In this document: positions 35,292 through 50,271 of the stretch, piece after piece | Layout: every line of letters starts with the position of its first letter | How positions within the stretch are numbered: position 1 is the first letter of the stretch | NCBI GenBank assembly: GCA_963663275.1 | Contig: OY760183.1 | Coordinates: forward strand, 1,248,001 to 1,312,000 | Direction of reading: 5' to 3' | Length of the DNA stretch: 64,000 nucleotides | Origin: Chloroflexota bacterium | GTDB taxonomy: Bacteria; Chloroflexota; UBA11872; VXOZ01 | Notes under the pieces: generated by a model | The model's database searches: none | Told to the model about the DNA's origin: nothing | What the model saw: the letters and a program-made list of their open reading frames with translations, nothing else | Position numbers and translations under genes: made by a program

Positions 35292-36671
35292 CTATTCCGC
35301 CATCAGCGCGTTGGCGCGCGCGGCGGCGTCGGTGAACGCTTCCGCCACCGTGATCTTGTCCTCCACGATCGCCGTCTGCCAGGCCTCCGCCAGCAGCCCG
35401 AATACCTCGGCGTCCTTGCGGAAGAGGCCGCCGTTGGGCCAGGCGTACTTGCCGCGCACCGGATGCGCGAACGCGTCGAGATTCTTGTCCGCCAGCGCCG
35501 GGAAGTTCTCGCTCATGATGCTGATGTAGCGGTCTTGCAGCGAGGCGCGCGGATGTTGGATGCTGGCAATCTGGCATTGCAGGTCGAGGTACGTATCGGT
35601 CTGCAGGAACTTCATGAAGTCCCACGCCGTATCCGGGTCTTTGGTGTTTGCCCAGACCACCCACGCGTCGATGGAACCCTGGGTGGCGCGGGCCGCCGGG
35701 CCCTGGGGCAGTGGGACCACGTCCCAGTCCTCAACGTTATCGGGGTAGTCAGCCGAGTACTGCCCCGGCCCCCAGGAGCCTTCCTCCCAGGTTGCCAGTG
35801 TGCCCTGCATCAGGGCCTGGACCTTGCTGCGATCCAGCGCCGCCCATTCCTCACCGTGCACAATGCTCCGGTCCTGGTGGTAGCGAGCGTGTACCCACTC
35901 CATGGCCTCGATGGCTTCCGGACTATCGAAGGTGGCGTGGCGGTCGTCTTCCGGATCGACCACGGTACCGCCGTTCTGCACGATCTTCCAGATGCCGCGT
36001 CCCCAGCCCGCGTCCACGCCGCCAAAGACGGTGTTCGGGCGGTCGGTGAGCCTGAGCATCGCATCCTGGTATTCGTCCCAGCCCCACGTGTCGTCGGGGA
36101 ACGCCAGACCCTGCTTTTCGAAGACTTGCTTGTTGTACCAGAGCACGTACACGTTGATGTACATGGGCAGACCGTACTGGCCCGTCTCCGGCCAGCGCAT
36201 TGCGGCGAGCTGGAAGGGGATGTAGTCGTCCATGGGGAAGCCGTCGCGCTTGATGAAGGGATCCATGTCGAGCAGCAGACCTTCCCGTCCCGCCTGGACG
36301 AGATTCGTGCCCCACGTCATCGCGATGTCGGGTCCGGACCCGGCCACCCAGGAGGTGATGTAGACTGACGGGCTGTCCTTTACGCCGAGGACGTTTAGGG
36401 TGACGTTGGGGTTGTCCGCCGTGTACGCATCGGCGCCGGCCTGCGCCGCTGCCACCCAGGTGGAGTCGCCCCAGAGCGCCCAATCCAGGGTAATGGGCTC
36501 TGCCTGCGGCTCCGGCTCTTTGGCTTCCTTCTCTTCTGGGGCATCGTCCGTTGTCGCCGCGGGCATGGTCGCCTGGCCGCAGGCGGCCAGGGCGATTGCG
36601 CCCAGCGCGCCGCCGCCCAGCCACAGCGCCGAGCGTCGCGTCAAACGGGTTTCGCTGTCACCGGTCTTCAT
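35292..36671 (-). CDS. Sugar ABC substrate-binding Tat lipoprotein
   Basis: LTRRSAL, LAACG, YGLP, WYNK, PDDTWGWDE; aggaggt RBS. Confidence 0.9.
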   Translation of the reverse strand: MKTGDSETRLTRRSALWLGGGALGAIALAACGQATMPAATTDDAPEEKEAKEPEPQAEPITLDWALWGDSTWVAAAQAGADAYTADNPNVTLNVLGVKDSPSVYITSWVAGSGPDIAMTWGTNLVQAGREGLLLDMDPFIKRDGFPMDDYIPFQLAAMRWPETGQYGLPMYINVYVLWYNKQVFEKQGLAFPDDTWGWDEYQDAMLRLTDRPNTVFGGVDAGWGRGIWKIVQNGGTVVDPEDDRHATFDSPEAIEAMEWVHARYHQDRSIVHGEEWAALDRSKVQALMQGTLATWEEGSWGPGQYSADYPDNVEDWDVVPLPQGPAARATQGSIDAWVVWANTKDPDTAWDFMKFLQTDTYLDLQCQIASIQHPRASLQDRYISIMSENFPALADKNLDAFAHPVRGKYAWPNGGLFRKDAEVFGLLAEAWQTAIVEDKITVAEAFTDAAARANALMAE

Positions 36672-36941
36672 TTCCCTTACCTCCTTGCTTGCCCCTGCGG
36701 CAAGCCGTTCGCATGAGAGCAACACGAACTGAACGTACGGGCGACGCGCGGCTCTGCCGCACTCTCGCCACTGGCCAAAAACCGGTCACGCCACCTCCTT
36801 TCGCTTGCCAAGACACGACCAACGGTATCTTTGCCTGACATTATTACGAAATCGCTCCCGCGAATGCAACACGTGAGGGCTCGCTAACGCAACGAGCGCA
36901 CTGTCGCGGCGATGGCCTGGGAGCCGATGGCGTGGCCGTCT

Positions 36942-37316
36942 GCGCCCGTAGGGGCACGACATGTCGTGCCCCTACGGGCGCCGTAGCGCGGGAATGACGG
37001 ACTTTGCTTTAAGTCCTGTAGCGCGGGGGCTTGTCCCCCGCACGGGAAATCGCGAAGAGGTAGGCGGGGGAAGATGGATTCCCGCGTGCGCGGGAATGCC
37101 GGTCACTGTTTTGACCCCGTAGCGCGGGGGCTTGTCCCCAATGCTGTCGCGTAAACGTAGCGCGGGGGCTTGTCCCCCGCCGGAGCAAGCAAAGTGAGAA
37201 CGAAATGGATTGACCCTACGGAAGACGCAGGTTACAAACCTGCGCTACCGGAGAAACGAGCGTTGTTTTCACTCTCATTGTGTTTAATGCGACAGCATTG
37301 GGGCTTGTCCCCCGCC
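36942..37316. repeat. Cluster of REP families A, B (gtagcgcgggggcttgtcccccgc) and C (gcaggttacaaacctgcgctac)
   Basis: Copies at 36948, 37018, 37119, 37157, 37227. Confidence 0.85.
37139..37300. mobile_element. 162-bp MITE (CAATGCTGTCGC family, IS4-like ends) inserted in REP B
   Basis: TIR caatgctgtcgc/gcgacagcattg; 11-bp duplication gggcttgtccc at 37128-37138 and 37301-37311. Confidence 0.85.
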
Positions 37317-37384
37317 TTTGCGCGTGAGACACAAGCTCTGCCACACCTGCTCTCTTGGGTCAGAAGGAGAGCGGGCGACCGGAC

Positions 37385-38392
37385 CTATGCCAGCAACCCC
37401 AACTCCCGCTGCGTTTCCGCGATGCGCGCCAGCGCCGCTTCCGGCAGGGGGCCTTTGTCGGAGATCGCCACGTTCTGCTCGAGCTCCTCAGGATTCATGG
37501 CGCCGGGAATCACCGACGTTACCCCGGAAAAGCTGAGGATGTACCGCAAAGCGGCCTCACTCAAACTCCCCGCCACGCCCTCATCGACCAACCACATGAA
37601 AGAATTCGCCTCCCGCAGCCGCGCGGCGAACCGCTCCCGCGGCATGAGGCTGCGGTGGTCGTCCGGCTCGAATTCATGGTCTGCCGTGAACGAGCCGGAG
37701 AGAAATCCCGAGGCGAGCGGCGAGCGGATGACGATGCCGATGCCGCGCTCTTCGGCCAGAGGCAGGAGCCGCTCGGTGGGTTCCGGTTCCAAGAGGCTGA
37801 ACCCGATTTGGATGATCTCCGCGCGGCCGTCTTCCTCGATGAGCCGGATGGCTTCCGTCACGTCGCTGCCGGAGACGCCAATGTGCCCGACGTGCCTTTC
37901 CGCGCGCATTTCGACCAGCAGACCCAGCGGGTCTTCTCCCATCTCGCTGGCGACCGGACTATGCAGCAGCACAGCTTCGATGAGGTCCGTTTGCAGGCGT
38001 TCCTTGCTGCGGTGCACGCTGGCGCGCAAGGCGTCGCGGGAGAAGTCCCGCGCCAGCACGGGCGGCCCGCCGCCCGCGACCGGGCGAACGTGCTCGCCGC
38101 CTTTGGTTTCCACGAAGACTTCCATGCCCTGGAGGTGGGGCGGGCGTTGGCGCAACGCTTCAGGGATGTAGACTTCGGCTTCCGCATACACCGGCGCGGT
38201 GTCGATGAAGTTGAGCCCCAACGACAGGCCGTGATGAATTGTCTCTACCGCAGTCTCCAGCGTCACGGTGCCGTACGTGGCCGGACCCGACCAGTAACTG
38301 CCGCTCGTAATGAGCGCGCCCCCCAGCGGGTAGGTTCCCAGCCCAACCTCGGATACGTCGTGACCTGTGTTTCCCAGCGGACGATAGCGCAT
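37385..38392 (-). CDS. Aldo/keto reductase
   Basis: MRYRPLGNTG..VSEVGLG, FIDTAPVY, TK, LHSP, SPLASGFL, VIPG. Confidence 0.93.
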   Translation of the reverse strand: MRYRPLGNTGHDVSEVGLGTYPLGGALITSGSYWSGPATYGTVTLETAVETIHHGLSLGLNFIDTAPVYAEAEVYIPEALRQRPPHLQGMEVFVETKGGEHVRPVAGGGPPVLARDFSRDALRASVHRSKERLQTDLIEAVLLHSPVASEMGEDPLGLLVEMRAERHVGHIGVSGSDVTEAIRLIEEDGRAEIIQIGFSLLEPEPTERLLPLAEERGIGIVIRSPLASGFLSGSFTADHEFEPDDHRSLMPRERFAARLREANSFMWLVDEGVAGSLSEAALRYILSFSGVTSVIPGAMNPEELEQNVAISDKGPLPEAALARIAETQRELGLLA

Positions 38393-38534
38393 GAATATCA
38401 CCCTTTCTTGCCGTCTGCACAGTGATCAGTTTGCCAAGTGGCCTATCACCGCAGCCAACGGCCTCCAATCGCTCAATCACTCCAGCGCCGGATCCACTTT
38501 CATCCCGCGCTCCCATTATCCTCAAGCGCGAACC

Positions 38535-39707
38535 TCAAACCGGACCGCGCAACGACTCCCAATCCCGCAGCGGGAACTCGATGAGCCGTCCTTCCTGCGC
38601 TGCCAGATACGCGCCTTCCACCACCTCCAGCGAGCGGGCGCCGTCGATGCCGTTGGACTCCGGCTCGCGGTCCTCGCGGATGGCTGTCAGCAGTTCCTTC
38701 TCTTGCGCGTAGAAGCCCGCCGCGTAGGGCACGTGCAGCACCAGCTTTTCATTGGCCATTTCCGGATTGTTGCGGCGCGGCTGCTCGAAAGTGCAATCGG
38801 CGAAGGCTTGAGCAACCTGCGGCTCTTCGAACGTCAACCAAGGCAGTTTGTTGCTGTAGAGGGTGATCGTGGCATCGGAGCCATGCCCAATTCCACCCTC
38901 CATAATCAGGTAGCCCTCGCTGCCGTTGATGACGATCTGGCGGTGCTGCGGCCCCTGCAAGCACCACACCATCTCGAACACCCCGATCGCGCCGCTGTTG
39001 AAGCGGAAGAGCACGTGGGACGTGGTCTCGATTTCCGCGGTTTCCCACAGGAAGTTATCGAACTCCGCGCCCGCGATGTGCTTGACCCCGCTGCCCTCCC
39101 AGAAGAGCAGGGTATCGATGTAGTAGCAGCCGTCGCGGTGGAGCGCGCCGCCGCCGGCCGTGGCTTTGCCGAGTTTCCAACCCATGTTGGAGCGGGAACC
39201 CTGCGTGATCACGTCCTTGTGGAGCATGTGGCGCTCCAGCACGTGGTAGACGTCGCCGATGAGGCCGGCGTCCAGGATGCGCTTCACGGCGCGGGCGGGC
39301 GGTTCGAAGCGGTCCCGGTCGGCGATCATGAGCTTGACGCCGGCGTCGCGGCAGGCGCGGATGGCTGCAACGGATTCGTCCAGATCGAGCGTCAGCGGCT
39401 TTTCGCAGATTACGTGAACGCCGGCCTCCGCCGCCGCCAGTATGGCGGGCAGATGCAGGTGATGCGGCAAACAGATGTCCACCGCCTGCACCTCCGGGCG
39501 TTGCACCACCTCGGCGAAGTCGGTTGCCGCCGCCCGCGCGCCATACTGCCGGACTCTGGCTTCGGCCCGCTCCACGTCACTGTCGCAGGCCACTTCCAGC
39601 CGCGCCTCGCCGGCGCGCTCCAACCGCTGCCAGCCGTCGAAATGAGGATGGGATATGCTGCCGCAGCCAATCACGGCTACGCCAATTGGATCACCATTCG
39701 TTGCCAT
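38535..39707 (-). CDS. Gfo/Idh/MocA oxidoreductase
   Basis: VIGCGSIS, HVICEKP, GGGALHRDGC. Confidence 0.9.
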   Translation of the reverse strand: MATNGDPIGVAVIGCGSISHPHFDGWQRLERAGEARLEVACDSDVERAEARVRQYGARAAATDFAEVVQRPEVQAVDICLPHHLHLPAILAAAEAGVHVICEKPLTLDLDESVAAIRACRDAGVKLMIADRDRFEPPARAVKRILDAGLIGDVYHVLERHMLHKDVITQGSRSNMGWKLGKATAGGGALHRDGCYYIDTLLFWEGSGVKHIAGAEFDNFLWETAEIETTSHVLFRFNSGAIGVFEMVWCLQGPQHRQIVINGSEGYLIMEGGIGHGSDATITLYSNKLPWLTFEEPQVAQAFADCTFEQPRRNNPEMANEKLVLHVPYAAGFYAQEKELLTAIREDREPESNGIDGARSLEVVEGAYLAAQEGRLIEFPLRDWESLRGPV

Positions 39708-39836
39708 TGTTGCTCGCTTTCTCGAGTTTCCGCGCTGCCGTATGCTGCGGGATGTGTGTATAGTACGCCAATGACGGTACTGATTGCCACGCTGCGCGCC
39801 TTGCCCGCGGTGGTGTGAGCGAGGTGGCGCCCAAGA

Positions 39837-40178
39837 GGCGGGGGACAAGCCCCCGCGCTACGTTTCGTAGTGGAGCAGCGTAAAGTCCGGGAAGGCGACA
39901 GATCCGCGTAAGGGCGGTTCGCGAACCGCCCCTACCGCATGGTCGGATACGGGGGACAGGCTCCAATGCCGTCGCATCAACGCAATGTGTGTGAAAGCGG
40001 TGGCTCAGATTTCTGGTAGCGCAGGTTTGTAACCTGCGGCTTCGTTCTTCGATCTTGCGAATTGGTTTTCCTTGCTCCGGCGGGGGACAAGCCCCCGCGC
40101 TACGTGACGTAATGGAGTACCGAAAAGACTGGGAAGGCAAGTAATCCGCGTAGGGGCGGTTCGCGAACCGCCCCTACT
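39837..40178. repeat. Duplicated composite of inverted REP B + REP D (gtaggggcggttcgcgaaccgcccctac), with REP C between the two units
   Basis: About 100-bp units at 39837-39935 and 40079-40177. Confidence 0.85.
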
Positions 40179-40395
40179 ACCGCACGATAACCGGGATGGC
40201 GCGAGAAAGAGCGCCGCGTCATCTCCGGTTGAGGTTGCGAGAAAGAACCTACTCTCGTATCGGCTCTGCACCGGCATAGTACAATGTGTTTGGAAGACTG
40301 CGTGATTCCGAATGCAATCCAACGCGCAGCCTGAACTCTAGGCGGGAAAGAGCCCGCTCCGATTCCTTGAAGACCGGCACGCGAGGGCAGCGAGC

Positions 40396-40899
40396 ATGAG
40401 CAAGAGAAGACCCATAGAGGGACGCGGACTGCTGGCAAAGCCACTGTTCGTTGGCGCCGCCGCCGTGGTCGCGGTTGCCATCGGGCTGGCGGGCCTGTGG
40501 CTGTTCGTCTGGAACGCCGACGCGCCGCAGCGGGCGGACGCCAGCGACCGGGCGCTGGTCGCTCGCGGCGAAGTCCTCTACCAACTGCACTGCGCCAGTT
40601 GCCACGGCGCGAACCTGGAAGGGCAGCCGAACTGGCGCGAACGCGATGAAGACGGCATGTTGCCCGCCCCGCCCCACGACGCCACCGGCCACACCTGGCA
40701 CCACAGCGACGGGCTGCTCTTCGACGTGACGAAATACGGCTCCACCGCCGTGATCGGCAGCGACTACATGAGCAATATGCCCGGCTTCAGCGAAAACCTC
40801 AGCGACGGCGACATCTGGGCAATTCTCTCATTCATCAAAAGCACCTGGCCGCCGGATATCCAGGAAATCCAGTCTGAATTGGAGGATACACGACAGTAG
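40396..40899 (+). CDS. Membrane-anchored c-type cytochrome
   Basis: N-terminal TM helix, CASCH, PAPPHDATGHTWHH, MP axial Met. Confidence 0.92.
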   Translation: MSKRRPIEGRGLLAKPLFVGAAAVVAVAIGLAGLWLFVWNADAPQRADASDRALVARGEVLYQLHCASCHGANLEGQPNWRERDEDGMLPAPPHDATGHTWHHSDGLLFDVTKYGSTAVIGSDYMSNMPGFSENLSDGDIWAILSFIKSTWPPDIQEIQSELEDTRQ

Positions 40900-40967
40900 T
40901 AAATGCTTGCTACTTTTTCCTGCTGAACGAACTACTGTGCTCTAGAGCGAGCATATGCGGTCCGAGT

Positions 40968-41747
40968 TCATCCTTGAAAGATGTGTTCCCTGTGGTAAGC
41001 CAGAAACTCCCTTCCCGGTTCGTACATCAAGGGAAGGCGAATTTGCATCCCATTGTACTTCTGAATTGCAGCCACATAGAACCTGTCATCTTCGTCTGCT
41101 TCTTTCCGCGATACCCGGACAGTCATGTCGTCGTCAATTGTAATTAATCCGATATCAAATGCCTTGTCATGCAACGAAGACAGGAGAAGGCCGTTGCATG
41201 GGTTTAGTCGGTTGCACCTGTCGTCGTGCCACGGAACAATGTGGCTTGCGACAAGCAACTGGGGCACTGATAAACCAGTAATGCAGCACCGACCCTCGTA
41301 AGCACCTAAGAGGAGTGATCGAAAAAACGCCTGATGGGTGCGTGCAGTGGTTTGCACAGGCCGATCTTCACCAATCCGGTCATCGACAGATTTGCCTTCG
41401 AGAGAGTATTCCGCCGATTCTTCCTCAACCCCAAGTTCCACTCTTGCTCGATAGGAATCGACAGCGAAAGACTCTACGTTGCCTTGCATTTCCTCCCAGA
41501 TTTCACGGTCTTTAGAAGATGCATGTTGCAGCCCTTTACGGCCTGAGGCTAGGACCTTAGGGTCAAGGCTGGCGAAGTTTCCGAGTTTCAATTTCACGGC
41601 CGAAGGAGTCCTGTCAATAGCACTTGCAACTCGCCGGATTTCAGGGTTGTTGCTCTGAATCTTGTTGAACGGAGTTCGCATATACAATTCGAGCGCTACC
41701 AACAACTGTTGACGATTCCATGGATTCCTAGTGGGCATAGCAGACAT
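40968..41747 (-). CDS. HNH endonuclease (putative restriction enzyme)
   Basis: Q..FR..LL.AY, CCITG, ASHIVPW, NGLLL..LHDKAFD. Confidence 0.9.
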   Translation of the reverse strand: MSAMPTRNPWNRQQLLVALELYMRTPFNKIQSNNPEIRRVASAIDRTPSAVKLKLGNFASLDPKVLASGRKGLQHASSKDREIWEEMQGNVESFAVDSYRARVELGVEEESAEYSLEGKSVDDRIGEDRPVQTTARTHQAFFRSLLLGAYEGRCCITGLSVPQLLVASHIVPWHDDRCNRLNPCNGLLLSSLHDKAFDIGLITIDDDMTVRVSRKEADEDDRFYVAAIQKYNGMQIRLPLMYEPGREFLAYHREHIFQG

Positions 41748-41774
41748 CCTTGCCTTCTTTGCGAATATTGACAG

Positions 41775-43124
41775 CTAAGCTCTAACGACGAGTTTCCAGT
41801 TGTAGTGGGCCGAGCCGTTAGCATTTTGGACCCTGCACTTGACATATTGGGCCCCTGGGGATTTCGGGCGGTAATTCAGAGAGTGCGCACGACGAGAATA
41901 AAGCTCGCCGTCAACTAACCACGTATAGCTGAGCGTGGGGTCGGTGTGTTCCTCAGCGTCCAGCGTGGCGTAGCCGATATGGCGGTAGGCGAAGCCGCGG
42001 CCGGGGCCTGGGGTACCGTCGGCTTGCAGCCAGCCTTCCTGCATGTCGCGGGCGGAGTAGTAGAGCGTGTAGCGGCCCGGCTCTTTGAGCACGTGGGGCG
42101 TGGAGGTATAGCGGGCGTCGAAGGCGTCGCGATCGTCGTTCGGGGGAAAGACGGGAAGATTAGAGCGTTCGGTCCATGCCAGGCCGTCGGCTGAGCGGGC
42201 AATCGTGAGGTCGAACCAATCGCCGTAGGCGTCGTCCAGTTGCGCGCGGGTGAAGCGCACGTCGTCGTGCAACGCCGCGCGGTGGCCGCCGTGCCACATG
42301 ACCAAGCCCGGGCCGTCGCGCATGACAAAGGGATAAACGCACGATTTGTAGATGCCCGCCGGTTGGAGCACGTCGGCAATCTCTTCCCAATGGACGCCGT
42401 CGGGCGAGCGCAAGACCATGACGTGGCCGTAGATCGAACTGGGGTCGGGGTCGCCTTCCGGCCGGGCGTTCACCCACATGGTGAAACTGCCGTCGTCCTC
42501 CTGGATGACCGAGGGACAGCGCCCGCTGCGCGTGACCGGCTGCGGGTGAAACTCCCACGCGATGCCGTCCGCGCTTTCGGCGTAGCCTACTTGCTGGGTC
42601 ATCTCCACCAGTTCGCCGACGGCGGTCTGCTCCCAATGGGTGAGCGCCGAGAACCACATGCGGTAGATGCGCCGCTCCAGGTCGTAGAGCACGAACGGAC
42701 TCTGAAAGCACCACCCCCAGCCGACCGCGTCCTGAAACGCCTGGTCGGTGACGATGGGGTTACCGGGATATTCCTCCCAGTGGATGCCGTCGCGCGAGGT
42801 TGCGTAGCCCAGATGGCAGTTGGCGGGCCGCGGCGGGCCGGAGGTGCCAACGTACCACATCTTGTACACGCCGTCGGCGCGAATGACGCCCGGCATGTAG
42901 AGCATCACCCGCGACCAGTCCTGCCTGGTGTTGGTCGTAGAAAGCACCGGCGCCCCCCGCCGCCGCCACCCCTGCTCCACCGGCACGGTCTGCCAAGGCT
43001 CGATCTCCACGCTGAGGTCAACAGTCTCACCCACTGCCAGCGGAATTTCCGGCCCGGTAGGGCTTATAGCTGAGATGCGGGGTACGTACCAGTCAGGTGG
43101 GAGTTCTTGTGACGAATTCGGCAC
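41775..43124 (-). CDS. Five-bladed beta-propeller glycoside hydrolase-like protein with split Ig/PKD-like domain
   Basis: Repeated P.V..DG.YKMWY and GYA.S.DGI.W blades; Ig-like strands at both termini. Confidence 0.7.
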   Translation of the reverse strand: MPNSSQELPPDWYVPRISAISPTGPEIPLAVGETVDLSVEIEPWQTVPVEQGWRRRGAPVLSTTNTRQDWSRVMLYMPGVIRADGVYKMWYVGTSGPPRPANCHLGYATSRDGIHWEEYPGNPIVTDQAFQDAVGWGWCFQSPFVLYDLERRIYRMWFSALTHWEQTAVGELVEMTQQVGYAESADGIAWEFHPQPVTRSGRCPSVIQEDDGSFTMWVNARPEGDPDPSSIYGHVMVLRSPDGVHWEEIADVLQPAGIYKSCVYPFVMRDGPGLVMWHGGHRAALHDDVRFTRAQLDDAYGDWFDLTIARSADGLAWTERSNLPVFPPNDDRDAFDARYTSTPHVLKEPGRYTLYYSARDMQEGWLQADGTPGPGRGFAYRHIGYATLDAEEHTDPTLSYTWLVDGELYSRRAHSLNYRPKSPGAQYVKCRVQNANGSAHYNWKLVVRA

Positions 43125-43163
43125 TAGCAGGCTCCTTAGTCCAAGCTCATCCGAAAGCGATTG

Positions 43164-43934
43164 TCATTGAATGTGTGGATCCTTTTGTGCTACGGGCACT
43201 TGCCGCCATTGGCGGCCGTCGATCACAGCAGCGTCTCCGCCGCGTTTGTTTCTCGCCCCTCCAAGCTGCTTCAAGAAGAATGCAATCTTGAAGTCTGCGG
43301 TCTGGTCGCGCAGGCTTCGTACCCAGTCTAGCTCCATGGGCCTAGCGCCGAAGCCGCTCTCTCCCCCGGCTATTACCCACTGAAGCGTACCGTCTCTTAG
43401 CCAGGGGGTTAGCTCGATCTGTTCCAACAAAGGTTCGGCAGAGACGAACCGTATGGGTGCAGGCAGTCGCGCAAGGACGGTGAGGCGTGGAGCATACTTC
43501 TGGTTTTCTACAGATGTGCCGATCCAAATGTTAGGGTGCCAGCCATCGGGAAAGAATTCTTCGTATTGCTTCCACCAACCAACAGCTCTGCCCGGTCTCT
43601 TCGTTAACACTTGGAAAATGTGACCGCGCTCCAATGCCGCTTGCTCCATCACTCTGAACATCTCGAATACGAACTCAAAAGGGACACGGGGATGGAAGAG
43701 ATCAGACATACTATTGACAAATACACGCCTTGGCCTTTTCCATGTTAGCGGTAGGCTCAATCGCTCAGGCAGCAATTGAACATCGCTTGGAGCGGTACCG
43801 TATCCTTTAACCCCCATGCCCTTTAGGCGCGGATACATCGCGTACATGTAGCAATTGTCGCAGCCGGGCGAAACGCGCGTGCAGCCCGTTACCGGATTCC
43901 AGGTTTCGTCTGTCCATTCAATTGCGGACGGCAT
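43164..43934 (-). CDS. DUF5131 / phage Gp37-Gp68 family protein
   Basis: SAIEWTDETWNPVTGCTRVSPGCDNCY, FVNSMSDLFH, LTKRP, SAEPLL, GGESG, FFLKQ. Confidence 0.93.
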   Translation of the reverse strand: MPSAIEWTDETWNPVTGCTRVSPGCDNCYMYAMYPRLKGMGVKGYGTAPSDVQLLPERLSLPLTWKRPRRVFVNSMSDLFHPRVPFEFVFEMFRVMEQAALERGHIFQVLTKRPGRAVGWWKQYEEFFPDGWHPNIWIGTSVENQKYAPRLTVLARLPAPIRFVSAEPLLEQIELTPWLRDGTLQWVIAGGESGFGARPMELDWVRSLRDQTADFKIAFFLKQLGGARNKRGGDAAVIDGRQWRQVPVAQKDPHIQ

Positions 43935-44010
43935 GTCAGAAACCCTATTGGAGAGTTTGGGAATTACCCTCTTCCGCCTGTTTGATTCAGGCAGCCGCTA
44001 TTTTTCACAT

Positions 44011-44598
44011 TCATCCACTGGAGCTCGAGGAAATGAAGTCCTTCACCAATTTCCCCGCGTCAGCGACATTCCTGCCAATAGTGAGCCTATTCGCCCATCT
44101 TCTGCCGGGATGCAGCGTATCCCACCAGCTTCGTTGGCTATTCCGCCGGCCACTACCCGGGTCGTGATCGCCAAAACCCTCCAGGCACAGATTCCACACC
44201 GGCTTGTAGTAGTCGATCAGGAATCGTTCCGCCAGGGTGATCCAGACCGGGACGACAGCCAAGTAGCGACAGGAGAAATCGGATACTTCAAGGTTGCTCG
44301 CCTCGCTGATGGACTTGGCATGCTCTCTGATTCTGCGCTGCAATGCAGGGCTTCCTACATCCACCTGTTCCCCTTTTCGCGAACCGGGCGGTACAGCCTT
44401 GCCAACGTAAATCGGTCTCTCACTACCCGATATCGGCGTGTAGACGGGCAATGATCCCGAGTAGAACAATGCGTATATCCCTGGTCCGGCGACACCCGCA
44501 ATGCCGTCCAGGCGTTCTTTGGTTTGCTTCTCGAAATGCAGAACCATCCCCGCCATGAGGTTGTCATACGTAAGCGGATCGTAAAGTTCGACCGTCAT
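44011..44598 (-). CDS. Eco29kI-family GIY-YIG restriction endonuclease
   Basis: GIYALFY, IYVGKAVP, EHAKSI, WITLAE, PVWN, GFG.HDPG.GR, WDTLHPGR.WA. Confidence 0.9.
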   Translation of the reverse strand: MTVELYDPLTYDNLMAGMVLHFEKQTKERLDGIAGVAGPGIYALFYSGSLPVYTPISGSERPIYVGKAVPPGSRKGEQVDVGSPALQRRIREHAKSISEASNLEVSDFSCRYLAVVPVWITLAERFLIDYYKPVWNLCLEGFGDHDPGSGRRNSQRSWWDTLHPGRRWANRLTIGRNVADAGKLVKDFISSSSSG

Positions 44599-45914
44599 AG
44601 GCAGCGCATTTCGATGACGGATTCGTACAGTCGATGCCCGTTCACGGCGCCCGCGCGCACGCTGGAATTGATGATACTGTTCCCCACGCGCGTTCCTCGC
44701 GGCACGTGGATATCAACGATTTTGAAGCCATGCGTTTCTGCGATCCTAGCCAGGAAGCGATCCGTTGGGATTGGGACGCCCTGCAAGATGCTGTTGCCAA
44801 TCACAATCAGAGCGGTTGCGCCGGGTTTGAGGCACCAACTCGCCCCCCGTGCGAAACGGGCGCAATCGTTGAAGTACAGCGCCGCATAGTTGGCCCAACC
44901 ATGCCCGCCGTAGATTCCTTTCTCTGGGTTCTTTTTGCGCACCAGGTCGAGTGTGCGCTCGATATCGCCATCTCCAATCGATGGATCTAGCTCGACGTTT
45001 TCCCGATCTCGGGCATTCTGCCAATAGGTGCCGAAGTTCATCTTCTCCAAGCGCTTGAAGTCCTTCGGAGAACGACAAAACCCCAACCAATAGAGATGCG
45101 GTCGTGTATTCCGATTGTAGTGATAATTGTTGAGATAGGGCGGCGAGGTAATGAGCAAGTCTATGCTTTGCTGGCCGACGTTGTGAAAACCATCGAAGAA
45201 GGACTGTTCCAAGACGCGGCCATTCCGCCGCTCGCTTGCGATCCTTGCGCGGCGGTACCAAGCCACGTCGTCTGCCATCTGCGAAACCTTCTTGGTCAAC
45301 GCCTCAGCCACGGGGAAATCATCCACTTCGGGACGTCCGACAGTCACTTTGCGGCCCAGACTTGGTTCGTACGAGTAATTGGAGAAGTCAACCATCGATG
45401 ACGCAAATGCGAGCCGAAAGATATCTGCAAGGCGCGCATCTTGCTCGCCGATGAAGTCCAGCGCCAGCAGCACTTTACGCTCGACTCTGGAACTATAGAA
45501 CGGGGAGCGTGTGCGGAATCCGGGGGGAGGTTGGGTACGAGGTCCGACATCATCTTGGAGAGCATTGCGCATGAATGCGCGAAACGCTTCAACTGTTTCC
45601 CGCAAAGTGTCTGGGTCTAGCCGATGCGCGTTCAGCTTCGTTTGCGAAGCAAAGGCAGCGTAGGGATTAATCTCAAAGCCAACGGCTTCATGCCCGGCAA
45701 GGTCGGCTTCAACGAGGGTGGTCCCAACACCGGCGAATGGGTCCAGGACCACACACTGACCATTCGTGTAACGGGCGATGGCGTCTTCAACGAAGTGCTT
45801 CGAGTAGCCGGCAATCCAGGGAACCCACCGGTGAACCGGCGCGTCCCGGTTTGCCATGAAGGCCGGGTCGCGAAAGGCGCTTTCATCGATCTGCAAGGCA
45901 ATTTGAGCGCCCAT
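44595..45914 (-). CDS. DNA amino-methyltransferase (likely N4-cytosine, alpha class)
   Basis: Motif I VLDPFAGVGTT precedes motif IV ITSPPY; stop overlaps the REase start. Confidence 0.88.
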   Translation of the reverse strand: MGAQIALQIDESAFRDPAFMANRDAPVHRWVPWIAGYSKHFVEDAIARYTNGQCVVLDPFAGVGTTLVEADLAGHEAVGFEINPYAAFASQTKLNAHRLDPDTLRETVEAFRAFMRNALQDDVGPRTQPPPGFRTRSPFYSSRVERKVLLALDFIGEQDARLADIFRLAFASSMVDFSNYSYEPSLGRKVTVGRPEVDDFPVAEALTKKVSQMADDVAWYRRARIASERRNGRVLEQSFFDGFHNVGQQSIDLLITSPPYLNNYHYNRNTRPHLYWLGFCRSPKDFKRLEKMNFGTYWQNARDRENVELDPSIGDGDIERTLDLVRKKNPEKGIYGGHGWANYAALYFNDCARFARGASWCLKPGATALIVIGNSILQGVPIPTDRFLARIAETHGFKIVDIHVPRGTRVGNSIINSSVRAGAVNGHRLYESVIEMRCL

Positions 45915-45947
45915 ACCGTCAACTTTCCAAGGTGAGCACACCCATCG

Positions 45948-47489
45948 CTACCGCGAGTAGTTCGGCGCTTCTTTGGTCAGAATCACGTCGTGGGGGTGGG
46001 CTTCGCGGAGGCCGGCGGGGGACATGCGGACGAAGCGGGCGTCGGTTTTCATATCCTGGATAGTGGCGGCGCCGCAGTAGCCCATGGCCTGGCGCAGGCC
46101 GCCGACCAGTTGGGTGACCATGGCCGCAAGCGGGCCTTTGTACTGCACGCGGCCCTCGATGCCTTCCGGCACCAGTTTCGATTCCTCGCCGATGTAGTCC
46201 TGGAAGTAGCGGTCGCGGCTGGCGGTGCGCGCCTTCATCGCGCCCAGCGAGCCCATGCCGCGGTACTCTTTGAACTGCTCGCCTTGGTAGAGCACCACCT
46301 CGCCGGGGCTTTCTTCCACGCCGGCGAAGAGCGAGCCGATCATCACCGTATCCGCGCCCGCGGCAATCGCCTTGGCCACGTCGCCGGCGAACTGGATGCC
46401 GCCGTCGGCGATCACGGGGATGCCGTATTGGGTGGCGACGCCGGCCACGTCGGCAATGGCCGTAATCTGGGGCACGCCGGTGCCGGTCACGACCCGCGTG
46501 GTGCAGATGGAGGCCGGCCCCACACCGACTTTCAAGGCGTCGGCCCCCGCCTCTATAAGGTCTTCCGCCGCGGCGGCCGTGGCGATGTTGCCGGCGATCA
46601 CCGGCACGTCGAACAACGTCTTGAGCTTGCGCAGCGTCTCGATGACGCCGGCCGAGTGGCCGTGGGCGCTGTCCAGCACCAGCACGTCAACGCCGGCCGC
46701 CACCGTTTCCTGGGCGCGCTCGATGCCTTCCACGTTCGTGCCCACGGCCGCGCCCACGCGCAGGCGGCCTTTTTCGTCCTTGGTCGCCAGCGGAAACTGG
46801 ATCTTCTTGGCGATGTCCTTGACCGTAATCAACCCTTTGAGCATGAAAGCGTCGTCCACCACCGGCACTTTCTCGATGCGGTGGCGGCGCAGGATTTCTT
46901 TTGCCTCTTCCAGCGTGGTGCCGACGGGGACGGTGACGAGATTCTCTTTCGTCATCACGTTCACCACCGGCTGGTCGAGATTTTCCTCGAAGCGGATGTC
47001 GCGGTTGGTGAGGATGCCGACCAGCTTGCCGTTCTCGGTGATGGGCACGCCGGAGATGTGGTAGCGTTCCATCAGGTCCACCGCCTGGCGCACGGTGGCG
47101 TTGGGCCCCAGGGTGATCGGATCCACGATCATGCCGGCTTCCGAACGCTTGACCTTGTCCACCTCGGCGGCTTGGACGTCTACCGCCAGGTTGCGGTGAA
47201 TCACGCCGAGGCCGCCCTCCCGCGCCAGCGCAATCGCCAGCCGCGCTTCGGTGACGGTATCCATGGCGGCGGAGATCAGCGGGATATTGAGCGCAATCGC
47301 CGGGGTCAGCCGCGCGCGGGTGTCGGCGTCTTTGGGCAGCACGGCGGAATAGGCGGGAATGAGCACAACGTCGTCGAAGGTCAGGCCCTGCTTAACCAGC
47401 TTGGCGTCGGACGCGGGTTCGTTGGTGGGAGCAAGGGGCTCAGGCGCGGCGCTCAGGCCCGTTCTCCCGGCGGCATCGTTCCGTATCAC
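45948..47489 (-). CDS. guaB: IMP dehydrogenase
   Basis: LTFDDV, CBS pair, [36 protein letters not shown]. Confidence 0.98.
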
Positions 47490-47631
47490 CGGCAGTCTCT
47501 CCTCTGGTGCAAAGGGGATGGCTCACGCGTGCGGGGACCTCTTGGGGTCTATTATACGGTACGGCGCTGGCGTTCGGAGGAGATTCTGCCGAGGTACGGA
47601 GAAAACCGTCCAATTTCCTTGACCGCGCCCC

Positions 47632-47666
47632 TTGCAATCGACAAGCTACTTAGATATTCTATATAC
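47632..47666 (+). promoter_or_regulatory. Sigma70-type promoter giving a probably leaderless padR mRNA, overlapped by a palindrome
   Basis: ttgcaa-17-tattct-6-ATG; taga-tat-tcta inverted repeat over the -10. Confidence 0.6.
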
Positions 47667-48041
47667 ATGTTACGCGAATTACGCAAAGGCACGGCCAGCC
47701 TGCTGCTGCTCGACCTGCTGGCGGCGCGGCCCATGTACGGGTTCGAGCTTGCCGAGGCGCTGCGGGAGCGCACCAACGGCGTGCTCGCCTTCAAGGAGGG
47801 CACGCTCTACCCGGCGCTGCACCGTCTGGAAGCCGAGGGGCTGGTGACGCCCTACTGGCAAGACAGCCCGCGCGGGCCGCGCCGCCGCTACTACCGCCTG
47901 ACGGCGCGCGGCCGCCAGGCGCTGGATGAACGCCGCGCACAGTGGCGCACACTGGTGGAGGCTATCGATGGCGCGCTTGACACCGGAAACGAAACGCTTT
48001 CTCCGCAAGGCCGTGGCGGGACTGCCCCCGCCGAAACGTAA
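47667..48041 (+). CDS. PadR family transcriptional regulator
   Basis: ELRKGT..LLL, PMYGFEL, KEGTLYPALHRLE, RRRYYRLT. Confidence 0.95.
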   Translation: MLRELRKGTASLLLLDLLAARPMYGFELAEALRERTNGVLAFKEGTLYPALHRLEAEGLVTPYWQDSPRGPRRRYYRLTARGRQALDERRAQWRTLVEAIDGALDTGNETLSPQGRGGTAPAET

Positions 48042-49143
48042 AGAGGCCAGAGACGAATTGCGCGCGCACCTGGCGGACGCTATCGAGCACCGGGTGGCGC
48101 GGGGCGCTGAACATGCGCAAGCGGAGCGGGAAGCCGTCGCGGCCTTGGGCGAGGTGGAGACGCTCAACCGCGGACTGCTCCGCGCGCACTATGGCAGGAA
48201 GTGGCTGGTTCACATCTTGCTCCACACGTTCGGCTGGTGGATTCCGGAATTGCCGCGCATCCGCTTGCGCCCGAAATTCGCGATCTGGAAGTATGCGAGC
48301 AAGTACCGCCGCCAGTATGCTGAGGGCCGTTACGACGAGATTATCGCACGCTTAGAACGGGAACTTGCGTCGCCAAACCGCGACGACGACCTGCACAGCG
48401 ATCTTGGCTTGGCATACAACGCCATCGGCGAGCATGAGCGCGCGTTGACGCACCTGCAAGCGGCTGTGGACTGGTACAAGGCGCATCCGGCGTTGCAGAA
48501 GTCTGACGATGGGAGAGACGTGGGACTGGCGGGCGCTTACAGCAATCTGGCCGGTGTTCTGGAAACGTTGGGCAGAGAGGACGAGGCTGAGGCGGCGGTC
48601 CAAGCCGGGCTCGCGGCGGACGATAGGCTCTTTCTGCTGAACTTCCAGCAGGCGAGCTTCTGCCTGAGGCGTGGAGACCGTGACGGGGTTCTTGCTCATC
48701 TCGAAGCGTCCCTGAGTCAGAATGACAGCGATATGACAAAGGGCGGTCACGGCAGGACGCTCCTCCTCATTCTGTGCGCATCAGACTATGACGCCTTGCG
48801 CCCGGATCCGCGCTTTAGCGCGCTCGCCTATCGTGCCTACCGCAGCCTGCCCGATGCACATAAGACTTTGGGAAGTGAATACGAGGAACTGGCGGCCATG
48901 CCGAGCGGCCTTGCCGTGGACGGCCAGGACTTCCTGCACAACTGCCAGCAGGCAAGAAGCCGCCTTGAGCGGGGCGACATAGACGGCGCTTTCCATCATC
49001 TTGAAGCGTGCTTGGACGCTACCGTGAAAAACGGCAATCCTGGGGCAATCCTCCTGCTTGTATTGAGCGCCGCTACGTTCGACCCCTTGCGCAAAGAGTC
49101 GCGGTTCGACCGCCTGCTGGACCGGGCCTACTCCAGCCGGTAG
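47968..49143 (+). CDS. HAAS/permease-prefix domain + TPR protein
   Basis: ELRAHLADA..AEREAVAALGE, TPR helices, duplicated D.LR..RF C-terminal module; ggagg RBS. Confidence 0.75.
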   Translation: MARLTPETKRFLRKAVAGLPPPKRKEARDELRAHLADAIEHRVARGAEHAQAEREAVAALGEVETLNRGLLRAHYGRKWLVHILLHTFGWWIPELPRIRLRPKFAIWKYASKYRRQYAEGRYDEIIARLERELASPNRDDDLHSDLGLAYNAIGEHERALTHLQAAVDWYKAHPALQKSDDGRDVGLAGAYSNLAGVLETLGREDEAEAAVQAGLAADDRLFLLNFQQASFCLRRGDRDGVLAHLEASLSQNDSDMTKGGHGRTLLLILCASDYDALRPDPRFSALAYRAYRSLPDAHKTLGSEYEELAAMPSGLAVDGQDFLHNCQQARSRLERGDIDGAFHHLEACLDATVKNGNPGAILLLVLSAATFDPLRKESRFDRLLDRAYSSR

Positions 49144-49266
49144 CATCGTCCAGCCGCTTTCCGTCTCCCAGCCTTGCGCCGATATGCCGCCGGGACCGGT
49201 AGCGCGTTCCGCAAGCCGCGGCGCGCCCAGATGTGGTCGCGTAAACGGAGCGCGGGGGCTTGTCCC

Positions 49267-49441
49267 CAATGCTGTCGCATTAACTTCTGACTAAGGCAAC
49301 CACGCAGAACCCGCGCTGCTAATGCGCTTGATCTCTCGTCAACCCGGTGTAAGGGCATGACATGTCGTGCCCCTACACCGGGTTGACAAGCCGCGTAGGG
49401 GCTCATACTCGTGACTCTCTACTCTTAATGCGACGGCATTG
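49267..49441. mobile_element. 175-bp MITE (CAATGCTGTCGC family) inserted in REP B
   Basis: 17-bp TIR caatgctgtcgcattaa/ttaatgcgacggcattg (1 mismatch); 11-bp duplication gggcttgtccc at 49256-49266 and 49442-49452. Confidence 0.88.
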
Positions 49442-49782
49442 GGGCTTGTCCCCCGCCGGAGCACGCGGAACTGCCGCCAAGAGAGCAGCACGGGGCGTGC
49501 ATTAGTGACTCTCGCTGCGGGATAGTCAGGGCGGCAACATTGAGGGAGCGCCCCTCTGCTCCCTGAGAGTTGGCCGCATTGGCGCTCCTCTACGCTGTGC
49601 TAGTATGAGCCTATAGTTCCCCTTTCCTCTGAATCAGGAATCTACCGCGAAAGTGTCGAGAAGGTTGGACAGAGCGCCGCTCATGGTTGGAGTCTACGGC
49701 AAGCCCGGCGCCGGCACGGTTAGCCAGGAGTGGAAGCGACACTTGTCCGTGTCCCTGGCCCGCATCCGTTCATCCTTCGACA

Positions 49783-50169
49783 GGCTCAGGACGAACGGAA
49801 GCAACAGTCGTCTTGGGACGAGCGGATGCGACCGTCGGCTCAGGACGAACGGATGCGACCGTCGGCTTGGGACGGACGGATGCTACTGTTGGCTTGGGAC
49901 GGACGGATGCGACACTCGGCTTAGGAGACCTTTGCGTAACGCCGTCATTCCGGCGAAAGCCGGAATCCAGGGAGCTTTTTCAACTAAAGATTGCAAAGAG
50001 CCAAGCCGTTTCACACCCATCCCAACCTTCCCCCTCAATGGGGAAGGGGTAATACAGAGGTCTTTTAGGACGAACGGATGCTGTTTTCGGCTTAGGTCGA
50101 ATGGATGCTACTCTCGGGTGAGAACGAACGGATGCTTCTCTCGGCTCGAGATGAACGGATGCGCTGCTT
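49783..50169 (+). repeat. 27-bp tandem array (9 units) interrupted by a MITE
   Basis: Consensus ggcttaggacgaacggatgcnactntc; first unit is the end of palindrome ccgttcatccttcgacaggctcaggacgaacgg. Confidence 0.9.
49925..50064. mobile_element. 140-bp MITE (GAGACCTTTGC family)
   Basis: gagacctttgcgtaac ... gtaatacagaggtctt, TTAG duplicated at 49921-49924 and 50065-50068. Confidence 0.85.
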
Positions 50170-50271
50170 GCGCTAGATGCTTCTCTAGCGCGTGCCGTTG
50201 GCTCATAAGCATCGTCCTTTCCGTCTTTCCCGCCAATGCCGCTGTTCCCGCGTACTGCGCGCCATCTCATC

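Follow-up and report, generated by a model that had tools for sequence, protein, structure and literature searches.

Several ISs are known to insert into REPs, including ISRm22 of Sinorhizobium meliloti (IS4 family), IS1397, ISKpn1, IS621, ISPpu9, ISPpu10 and ISPa11 (Tobes & Pareja 2006, PMC1525189). IS186 of E. coli, which belongs to the IS231 group of the IS4 family, is specific for 5'-GGGG(N6/N7)CCCC-3' in either orientation (PMC5009759). Bacterial MITEs such as Nezha and Chunjie are moved in trans by an IS whose inverted ends match theirs (reviewed in PMC3184786), and in Anabaena variabilis GTAG-15 dimers were found "within long palindromic sequences" (Di Nocera et al. 2013, PMC3733652), a layout read there as REPs inserted into palindromes, with no transposase proposed in the part of that paper available to us. 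REPs are usually seen as the product of one system (RAYT), and the ISs that hit them as occasional visitors.

Here we analysed a stretch of 64,000 nucleotides from the genome of a Chloroflexota bacterium (the window). It contains three non-autonomous members (MITEs) of one transposon family, the autonomous partner of which is located elsewhere in the genome. Very probably, an IS4-family transposase mobilises these MITEs into the apex of one REP (REP B), the main MITE type renews the target that it consumes, and nesting of elements within each other produces composites.

MITEs in the window

The first element (37139-37300, plus strand) is a type A MITE of 162 bp, bounded by the 17-bp inverted ends that are common to the IS; it starts with CAATGCTGTCGC and ends with GCGACAGCATTG. 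Perfect copies of the 11-bp sequence GGGCTTGTCCC are located on both sides, at 37128-37138 and 37301-37311. On the plus strand, the left half of the target REP B (GTAGCGCGG) and the left duplication copy occupy 37119-37138, while the right copy and the right half of the target (CCGCC) occupy 37301-37316. Inside the element, 18 nt from the left tip, there is an intact version of its own target (cargo REP B; 37157-37180, plus strand), as the preliminary description had noticed, followed by REP C in inverted orientation (37226-37248; GTAGCGCAGGTTTGTAACCTGCG on the minus strand). The same intergenic region contains an intact, unoccupied REP B (37018-37041, plus strand) with a 7-bp stem, a 5-nt loop and a hairpin energy of -9.6 kcal/mol as DNA. 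Two other copies in the genome are 100% identical to this element.

The second element (49267-49441, plus strand) is a type B MITE of 175 bp with the same ends as type A, starting with CAATGCTGTCGC and ending with GCGACGGCATTG, and its cargo is a REP A-like palindrome (49349-49376). It is flanked by perfect copies of the same GGGCTTGTCCC (49256-49266 and 49442-49452), so the earlier observation of two elements with common ends, an identical 11-bp duplication and different cargo is confirmed at exact coordinates. When either element is taken out with one duplication copy, GTAGCGCGGGGGCTTGTCCCCCGC is restored, as had been noted, and this sequence matches the intact copy at 37018-37041.

The surroundings of the second element resemble a type A MITE. 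On its left (49229-49266, plus strand) we found the arm of an older type A relative, consisting of a degenerate end, GTAAAC and the left half of REP B, including the left duplication. On its right (49442-49466, plus strand) the second duplication copy is followed by CCGCCGGAGCA, where the older arm resumes up to its position 52. The site restored in silico is 95.6% identical over 45 nt to positions 8-52 of the 162-bp element, and the match extends 10 nt into the element end and 11 nt past the REP. The proposal that this element landed in the cargo of an older relative therefore holds as far as the sequence context is concerned, but the host is an arm fragment of 45 nt and not a whole element. 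A candidate for the old right end (49531-49542) contains 2 mismatches; at this stringency 11 matches occur in the window, versus 9.2 expected by chance.

The third member is an older type A copy without a recognisable left end (39964-40105, minus strand), with 76.9% identity to positions 17-162 of the first element. Its right end adjoins a degenerate REP B half, and it contains REP C (40017-40039) and a cargo REP B (40080-40103). This copy had been overlooked in the preliminary description, although it lies inside the range given there.

Insertion sites and self-nesting across the genome

Searching the genome with the 17-bp end (up to 3 mismatches), we detected 193 matches, versus 1 in the reversed-genome control; the observation in the window is real and far beyond chance. 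According to the interior sequence next to the ends, 61 belong to the type A left cluster (plus 10 nested arms) and 55 to the type A right cluster, while type B accounts for 13 and 9, a third type for 4, and the IS for 4 and 4. Type A is the commonest MITE, with about 53 near-full copies of 162-177 bp, and inside it two different GTAG REPs, REP B and REP C, form an inverted pair about 45 nt apart. There are also 51 partial matches which reach from REP B to REP C, about 25 of which (by eye) begin at the head of REP B without an element end upstream; such matches without element ends show about 70-80% identity.

Complete elements with 11-bp duplications number 51 (duplication copies no more than 2 mismatches apart), and 42 of these have a duplication that differs from the REP B apex at no more than 2 positions. 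Across the whole family, 129 of 193 ends are located in REP B, so the suggestion that most copies lie there is borne out genome-wide. Variant apexes (GGGCTCATCCC, GGGACGAGCCC, GGGCTCGTCCC and GGGGACGGCCC) are copied faithfully on both sides. The other 64 ends are more than 2 mismatches away from the REP B apex, and about 15 of them (counted from the list of ends) are in an unrelated, non-palindromic repeat (GGGTGAGGGGG / CCCCCTCACCC). Of the 9 complete elements located elsewhere than in REP B, only 3 have a target that is clearly palindromic. Thus targeting is not absolute, and a rule based purely on hairpins does not explain all sites, nor does one based purely on GGG(N5)CCC. For IS231A, a preference for GGG(N)5CCC, repeats about 11 bp long and cassette derivatives (MIC231) have been reported. 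Relative to the target REP, type A elements have the same orientation in 18 cases and the opposite orientation in 17. No excision footprints were found in a search for them.

Empty sites had been suggested as a check, and they were found in comparisons between sister species; contigs from public short-read runs break at these repeats. G015 contains a 204-bp type A-like element with a GGGCTTGTCCC duplication, and at the same site G007 and G003 have an intact REP B with identical flanks. For the first element of the window, G011 has an intact orthologous REP B ahead of the downstream gene, and the distance from REP B to the gene end is 77 nt there, versus 72 nt in the window (counted from the sequences).

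Because type A carries the REP B hairpin, elements land inside one another. We identified 13 junctions in which a left arm, a duplication and an element end are joined, versus 0 in the control. One IS copy (3018017-3019210) has inserted into a type A element at its cargo REP, and is flanked by the left arm of that element and, opposite, by its body. REP B copies bearing an element arm make up 8 of 56 occupied sites and 78 of 520 intact sites (odds ratio 0.94, p = 1), which means that cargo REPs are neither favoured nor shunned and are struck in proportion to their abundance.

Dimers with duplications of their own were also observed. The genome under study contains a 312-bp dimer with perfect duplications, and G011 contains three at different loci, namely L045 (1 mismatch; its internal REP is opposite in orientation to the target), L049 (1 mismatch) and L044 (2 mismatches). 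The dimers start at position 27-28 of the second unit, where the 11-bp duplication begins. Dimers derived from nesting have moved as units.

An alternative is that the apparent nesting reflects slippage or unequal recombination among REP Bs, with the second element of the window having struck a REP B with flanks similar by chance. In line with this, solo arms are common, as are REP arrays that lack a complete outer element; such an outer element was not seen around most of the 13 junctions either, and the host of the second element resembles type A at positions 8-52 only. However, the IS is bracketed by type A left arm and body as insertion predicts, the dimers begin at the start of the duplication and carry their own target duplications at different loci, and the arm match of the second element extends into the element end and beyond the REP. 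We consider this alternative unlikely, and self-nesting, as the preliminary description had supposed, is real. Many left arms adjoin REP B while the remainder of the element is missing; as 78 intact REP Bs bear an arm, versus about 53 near-full type A copies, deletion or recombination also shapes the arrays.

The autonomous IS and its transposase

A transposase gene between the same ends had been sought as the missing partner, and it is found in an IS of 1194 bp present in four copies, which are 99.3-100% identical. Its terminal inverted repeats of 17 bp, CAATG[C/T]TGTCGCATTAA, are the same as those of the MITEs, and all four copies are located in REP B with perfect 11-bp duplications. Each copy has one open frame of 377 codons with no stops and no frameshift, and the single gene encodes an IS4-family DDE transposase of 367 aa. 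This protein matches Pfam PF01609 (DDE_Tnp_1; 7.5e-23, 81.8 bits, cut-off 23) and NCBIfam NF033592 (transpos_IS4_1; 155.9 bits, cut-off 115).

Members of the IS4 family carry a Y-(2)-R-(3)-E-(6)-K signature, and their catalytic residues are spaced as D(60-110)D(100-150)E (PMC2266710). Both features are present in the transposase: the signature is exact (YRKRWQIELFFRWLK, residues 291-305), and the putative catalytic residues D122, D190 and E298, of which the D's were assigned by motif inspection, are separated by 67 and 107 residues. The single ORF and the duplication of about one helical turn (11 bp) also agree with the family. Table 1 of PMC2266710 gives ends -AATR--------WTW, direct repeats of 10-13 bp and a size of 1400-1650 bp for the subgroup IS4, and the ends (CAATGCTGTCGCATTAA) and 11-bp repeats fit, as the earlier guess of an IS4-like element had implied, while 1194 bp is too short. 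For the subgroup IS4Sa, which includes ISRm22, the same table gives ends CA------T, direct repeats of 8-10 bp and 1150-1750 bp; here the ends (C1, A2, T9) and size fit, and the 11-bp repeat is outside the range.

With the IS as query, no MITE was matched at E <= 1e-5, so the ends alone are common to both. The MITEs are non-coding elements of 162-205 bp, with 17-bp ends matching an IS in the same genome, 11-bp duplications and filled and empty sites, as expected of this class. The transposase was detected in only 2 of 17 genomes of the genus (G000 and G011) and is broken in G011; MITE-like copies exist in other species of the genus without a resident transposase.

It could be argued that the MITEs are relics of a different or extinct transposase, and that the 1194-bp IS shares ends and target with them by common descent. 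The IS and the MITEs have only 17 bp in common, most genomes of the genus have MITE-like sequence and no transposase copy, and type B copies are 80-91% identical to each other and therefore old. On the other hand, type A includes three copies with 100% identity, and about 25 reach at least 93% identity to the copy in the window; since the IS copies are 99.3-100% identical, type A MITEs and the IS are both recent in the same genome. Among the matches listed, many near-full-length MITEs exist only in G000 and G011, which are also the only genomes of the 17 bearing the transposase, and the transposase gene is the only one in the genome that the 17-bp ends enclose. A relic origin is thus very improbable, and mobilisation of the MITEs by the IS transposase remains our reading.

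Proposed mechanism and comparison with known systems

The target, REP B, is GTAG-headed and folds into a hairpin of -9.6 kcal/mol, in which a 7-bp G/C stem carries the loop CTTGT; 520 intact copies exist in the genome (up to 2 mismatches). A single Y1_Tnp (RAYT-like) gene was detected (43.7 bits, cut-off 23), with REP B upstream on the plus strand and four copies downstream on the minus strand. A GTAG-headed, high-copy palindrome with a RAYT gene between inverted copies is what characterises REP/RAYT systems. The preliminary description proposed that the element disperses its own landing sites. Type A does deliver an intact REP B, but the claim was overstated, since only 78 of the 520 intact copies are linked to an element arm and 85% are not MITE-borne. 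The RAYT gene is a likelier main spreader of REP B than the MITEs, and the IS family probably lives on sites that the RAYT system spreads.

According to our model, the transposase would act in trans on any DNA with the 17-bp ends and join it into the REP B apex, probably by cut-and-paste chemistry as in studied members of the IS4 family. Two strand transfers with an 11-bp stagger, symmetric about the loop, would duplicate GGG-CTTGT-CCC, and insertion occurs in either orientation. The substrate may be the palindromic duplex or an extruded hairpin. Each type A insertion splits one REP B and brings one intact REP B 18 nt inside its left tip, leaving the number of sites unchanged, so that transposition does not use up the target supply. 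The cargo REP serves as a full-value target, into which MITEs and the IS itself insert. After nesting, pairing of an inner end with an outer end would create new mobile composites, namely arms with a duplicated head (38 bp) and dimers with a duplicated tail (about 297-312 bp). The family exemplifies how nesting followed by re-mobilisation can give rise to longer mobile units and REP arrays.

That the elements are mosaic REP clusters (BIME-like) built by RAYT or recombination, with CAATGCTGTCGC as just one module and no DDE transposon involved, is scarcely tenable: the cargo is made of REPs, REP B / REP C doublets without terminal inverted repeats exist, the RAYT gene is flanked by REP B, and REP B and the 38-bp arm units form tandem arrays, but the same 17-bp inverted ends bound the 1194-bp IS with its IS4-family transposase, direct duplications of 11 bp, exact or nearly so and including faithfully copied variant apexes, flank 51 elements, a precise filled/empty pair exists between sister species, and HUH/Y1 transposases of the IS200/IS605 type are not known to make target duplications.

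As to the origin of type A, it may tentatively be a REP pair of the RAYT type captured between DDE IS ends, a chimera which two unrelated systems could move and which renews the site it consumes. If this less certain reading is true, recursive insertion would generate mobile head-duplicated arms and tail-duplicated dimers, and IS-driven self-nesting would be a general route by which REP clusters and composite MITEs grow. Related IS4 elements of 1.2-1.5 kb were examined at 10 loci in other Chloroflexota; 3 of the 6 loci with recognisable ends are in dispersed repeats with 10-11-bp duplications, so repeat-targeting may be a trait of the whole clade.

The type A interior, an inverted REP pair, and the single RAYT-like gene between inverted copies of the GTAG-headed hairpin REP B resemble the REPIN/RAYT system (Bertels & Rainey, PMC3337134). 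Unlike a REPIN, the pair is composed of different REPs (B and C) and not of two copies of one REP. The Anabaena variabilis GTAG-15 dimers (PMC3733652) are formally arranged in the same way, with inverted repeats on both sides of a REP pair, while the flanking repeats here are identified DDE IS ends and 11-bp duplications are made. Like Nezha and Chunjie, the MITEs described here are short and non-coding, with IS-matching ends, target duplications and filled/empty sites. However, their interior is not a deleted IS but host REPs, including their own target; in the part of PMC3184786 available to us no nested or REP-carrying MITEs are mentioned, and the word "nested" occurs 0 times.

IS186 likewise recognises a palindrome of G-run, spacer and C-run in either orientation, here GGGGG-CTTGT-CCCCC with 18 versus 17 insertions. 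It differs in that its duplicated core is 6-7 bp with the G and C runs flanking, while here 3 bp of each run and the 5-nt loop make up 11 bp, and in that it uses rare, single sites (54 in E. coli) and no dispersed REP family (PMC5009759). ISRm22 and the other REP-targeting ISs insert at the palindrome axis, as 4 of 4 IS copies do here, and together with the 129 of 193 family ends this corresponds to the type 1 association of Tobes & Pareja (2006, PMC1525189). ISRm22, compared by description only, makes 6-bp repeats (PMC1525189) versus 11 bp for the present IS, and the transposase shares only about 29-33% identity with named plasmid-borne relatives (ISRm16 and ISRel1 families). The available part of PMC1525189 mentions no related MITEs, REP cargo or nesting for these ISs.

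Since REP targeting by the IS4 family (ISRm22) was already published in 2006 (PMC1525189), the IS by itself is ordinary; the new part is the layer of MITEs that carry REPs and nest within each other. With a transposase of 367 aa, ends of 17 bp and a hairpin target of 19 bp, the family forms a compact experimental system, suited to telling apart a palindromic duplex and an extruded hairpin as the substrate of an IS4-family transposase. In summary, a DDE transposon family that is specialised on one REP, and whose most abundant MITE contains this REP and another one as cargo, provides a concrete and countable case of one selfish element living off the progeny of another.

Two MITEs at the apex of a REP hairpin

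Element 1, a type A MITE of 162 bp (37139-37300), and element 2, a type B MITE of 175 bp (49267-49441), share the left tip CAATGCTGTCGC. The right tip is the reverse complement of this sequence, which in element 2 has a single mismatch. Each element has perfect 11-bp direct repeats, GGGCTTGTCCC, on both sides. When the element and one copy of the repeat are taken out, GTAGCGCGGGGGCTTGTCCCCCGC is restored, which is REP B, one of three GTAG-headed hairpin repeat families (REP A, REP B and REP C). The shared ends, the duplications and the restored REP B, all reported in the preliminary description, were confirmed in the sequence. The same holds for the differing cargo: element 1 contains a REP B (37157-37180) and, on the opposite strand, the GTAG-headed hairpin REP C (37226-37248), while element 2 contains a REP A-like palindrome (49349-49376). 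Moreover, an intact REP B (37018-37041) lies 100 bp upstream of element 1, and a third, older copy without a left end (39964-40105; 76.9% identical), absent from the preliminary description, was located.

Folded as DNA, REP B forms a stem of 7 bp capped by the loop CTTGT (-9.6 kcal/mol, z = -3.8). The 11-bp duplication consists of the inner three stem pairs, the loop and the same three pairs, so both joining points are symmetric about the hairpin tip.

Empty sites were sought in 16 other species genomes of the genus, in which the neighbouring genes of element 1 have 77-89% identity. A clean filled/empty pair is formed by G015 versus G007 and G003: the orthologous spacer of G015 holds a 204-bp type A-like element between GGGCTTGTCCC repeats, whereas REP B is intact at the same spot in the other two, with the left flank …ggccatgcgctcttct and the right flank …tcttcgcgcactaggcagacacgg… as in G015. 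This comparison is read from the printed flanks; the MAFFT alignment put the gap in the wrong place. At the site of element 1, the REP nearest to the downstream gene in the genome G011 is an intact REP B, and its distance to the conserved gene end is 77 nt, versus 72 nt in the window (counted from the sequences). Intact REP B copies likewise lie within this orthologous spacer in G006 and G001. For element 2, both REP B and element ends are absent from the orthologous spacer in four relatives (G004, G005, G016 and G012), which agrees with a putative lineage-specific insertion, and identity of about 70% there means that the exact empty site is not definable.

Public-read Logan contigs from four runs (window 36000-50500) break at repeats, with ends at 36971 and 49267 and a start at 37288; no contig spans element 1 or 2, and the listed joints, which have short sides, are artefacts that connect one repeat to another. 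No excision footprints, in the form of two 11-mer copies at most 12 nt apart, were detected in the genome. Among the read sets, one run contains 96% of the sampled words of window 36300-38000 and six others 5-30%; five of these six are labelled sponge metagenome, labels that are no evidence of habitat.

Another repeat, about 140 bp long and bounded by the imperfect inverted ends GGAGACCTTTG … CAGAGGTCTTT, is found at 49924-50064 (unit roughly 49926-50066). The genome contains at least 9 further copies (82-87% identity), many more occur in two genomes of the genus (G008 and G009), and the depth of public-read contigs peaks across the repeat. This repeat is probably a separate, unrelated MITE family.

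The element family and its autonomous IS

The genome is a single 3.53-Mb contig with 64.3% G+C, in which the window occupies 1248001-1312000. The 17-nt end, CAATGCTGTCGCATTAA, has 193 matches genome-wide with up to 3 mismatches, versus 1 in the reversed genome, which serves as chance control. Most of these ends (129 of 193) adjoin an outside 11-mer with at most 2 mismatches from the REP B apex in either orientation; some of the remaining 64 lie beside degenerate REP B copies, and about 15 of them (counted from the listing) are in an unrelated dispersed repeat, …GGGTGAGGGGG / CCCCCTCACCC…. By end pairing, 51 complete elements whose 11-bp duplications have up to 2 mismatches were recovered (30 of 162 bp, 7 of 177 bp, 4 of 1194 bp, 4 of 174-176 bp, and others), and the duplication is at most 2 mismatches from the REP B apex in 42 of them. 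Variant target apexes (GGGCTCATCCC, GGGACGAGCCC, GGGCTCGTCCC and GGGGACGGCCC, the last with a 4-nt loop) are present identically at both flanks, which is the signature of staggered cleavage and not of a common repeat module. Type A copies are oriented as their target REP in 18 cases and opposite to it in 17.

Clustering of the 58 nt inside each end gave type A left arms (61, plus 10 nested arms) and right arms (55), two type B clusters (13 and 9), a third type (4), IS left and IS right arms (4 each) and 29 singletons. There are 53 near-full type A copies, with 72-100% identity to the window copy; three have the same sequence, and about 25 reach 93% or more. The type A layout is an end, 6 nt, REP B, about 45 nt, inverted REP C, about 40 nt and an end. 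In addition, 51 partial matches cover REP B to REP C, and roughly 25 of these (judged by eye) begin at the REP B head without an upstream end, at about 70-80% identity, indicating that REP B / REP C pairs occur independently too. The type A query finds matches in all 16 other genomes of the genus, many of them to REP parts alone. In its structure, type A resembles a REP pair caught between the ends of the IS.

A matching autonomous transposase was sought in the genome and found in four copies of a 1194-bp IS (genome 381634-382827, 1063162-1064355, 1098012-1099205 and 3018017-3019210), which are 99.3-100% identical to each other. The IS ends, CAATG[C/T]TGTCGCATTAA, are the same as the MITE ends, and left and right match at 16 of 17 positions; outside these 17 bp, no similarity between the IS and the MITEs was detected (E <= 1e-5). 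All four copies share the target as well, lying inside REP B with perfect 11-bp duplications.

A 367-aa protein is encoded by a single open frame in each copy; it matches Pfam DDE_Tnp_1 (7.5e-23) and NCBIfam transpos_IS4_1 (155.9 bits; cut-off 115). The residues D122, D190 and E298, with spacers of 67 and 107 residues, and an exact Y(2)R(3)E(6)K signature are present; such residues, spacing and signature are IS4-family hallmarks in the accessible portion of PMC2266710. In that portion, the IS ends match the ‘IS4’ subgroup (-AATR--------WTW; repeats 10-13 bp), with a length below its 1400-1650 bp, and the ends and size also match ‘IS4Sa’, with 11-bp repeats outside its 8-10 bp. The kin of the transposase are a large set of metagenomic proteins of 365-380 aa, about 50-56% identical and frequently encoded on contigs about 1.2 kb long, while named plasmid-borne relatives (tblastn against plasmids) have a low identity of about 27-33%. 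No relative of solved structure was found among PDB chains by phmmer, the single match (E = 0.56) being an unrelated protein. Within the genus, the transposase was found in 2 of 17 genomes, intact here and broken in G011 (77-79% identity).

Landing sites, nesting and composites

REP B has 567 genome matches (<=3 mismatches), of which about 30 are occupied left halves (counted from the context tally), and 520 intact copies (<=2 mismatches). REP C has 374 matches, and REP A (GTAGGGGCACGACATGTCGTGCCCCTAC; window 36948-36975), a perfect palindrome with a 13-bp stem (-16.6 kcal/mol as DNA), has 137; the GTAG start is common to all three. The genome contains a single Y1_Tnp gene (about 382945-383436, 43.7 bits; locus L035, 382860-383865) resembling a REP-associated Y1-type transposase (RAYT). 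It is flanked by two REP B upstream (+) and four downstream (-) at exactly 124-bp spacing, and the next REP B upstream is occupied by one of the four IS copies. With inverted copies on either side of the RAYT-like gene, REP B is thus a classical RAYT-associated REP. Tandem arrays of REP B only, with 5-6 units at a period of 43-45 bp and without element ends, exist at genome 970177-970444 and 3023681-3023886.

The preliminary description regarded the MITE as an element that disperses its own landing sites. Type A does deliver one REP B, but each insertion also splits one, and insertions of the IS and of type B consume REP B sites without bringing any. The idea of mainly MITE-dispersed landing sites is limited by the arm (the end portion of an element), which is missing at 85% of intact REP B, and by the RAYT present in the genome.

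Element 2 was also described as nested in an older relative. Its restored site is 95.6% identical to type A positions 8-52, spanning a partial end, the REP and 11 nt past the REP, which indicates that element 2 inserted into the REP cargo carried by an older type A arm. This part of the claim stands, but a complete outer element was rejected: type A similarity stops at position 52. A candidate old right end at 49531-49542 is no proof of one, with 11 matches at 2 mismatches in the window versus 9.2 expected by chance. Genome-wide, the junction of left arm (27 nt), duplication and element end occurs 13 times versus 0 in the control, and the IS at 3018017-3019210 is enclosed between a type A left arm and the type A body. 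The arm is present at 8 of 56 occupied and 78 of 520 intact REP B (odds ratio 0.94, p = 1.0); with such equal frequencies, cargo REPs are used as their number predicts, with neither preference nor immunity.

Composites are found as well. For example, a 312-bp unit (genome 212423-212734) joins type A(1-162) to type A(28-162) and has perfect duplications, and dimers built in this way, about 297 bp long, lie at separate loci in G011, each with its own duplications. In one of these (L045), the internal REP is oriented opposite to the target REP. The separate duplications at distinct loci, together with this reversed REP, indicate that the dimer moved as a unit, which may have been mobilised when the inner left end paired with the outer right end. 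Stacked 38-bp arm units before a type A copy (genome 1042720-1042807) represent the reciprocal product. At genome 2896484-2896800, three tandem 101-bp units each begin with a type B-like left end (CAATGCTGTCTC) adjoining a truncated REP A hairpin, which suggests, by analogy with the REP B arm arrays, a REP A-associated type B arm array.

Target choice and comparison with known systems

By analogy with studied members of the family, the IS4-family transposase would bind the 17-bp ends and excise or copy the element. It might then capture a target whose halves are related by the REP B symmetry, as duplex or extruded hairpin, and join both 3' ends to the target 11 bp apart. The hairpin alone was rejected as the full target rule, in that only 3 of the 9 complete elements with a target other than REP B are in clear palindromes; one of these three targets, CCC-ACAAG-GGG, has the REP B loop and an inverted stem. 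A second hot spot lies beside GGGTGAGGGGG / CCCCCTCACCC, in the repeat …GGGAGAGGGTTAGGGTGAGGGGG… (e.g. 1928525-1928701, 362660-362836 and 3019248), with no palindrome around the duplication.

In other Chloroflexota, ten loci that carry related ISs were inspected, and ends were recognisable at six. One IS, with an 11-bp duplication, occupies a different GTAG hairpin (L004), the G011 copy is in REP B (L005), and two are in a …CCCTCTCCC… type repeat, of the same kind as the second hot spot, with 10- and 11-bp duplications (L008 and L010). Another has a 9-10-bp duplication at a site without obvious repetition (L006), and the last is interrupted by a contig end (L007).

The autonomous IS is a new element of a kind already known. 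In the open-access literature searched, we found neither these elements nor bacterial MITEs that are REP-made, target-carrying or self-nesting, and no description of nesting proportional to target abundance or of mobile composites born from nesting. The nearest printed observation, in section 7 of PMC3733652 as far as its text was available, is that some REP dimers are ‘within long palindromic sequences’. As for the target, IS186 uses symmetric sites of G-run, spacer and C-run, GGGG(N6/N7)CCCC, according to the available text of PMC5009759, and every copy of ISRm22, an IS4-family member, is reported in REPs at the palindrome axis in the accessible part of PMC1525189.
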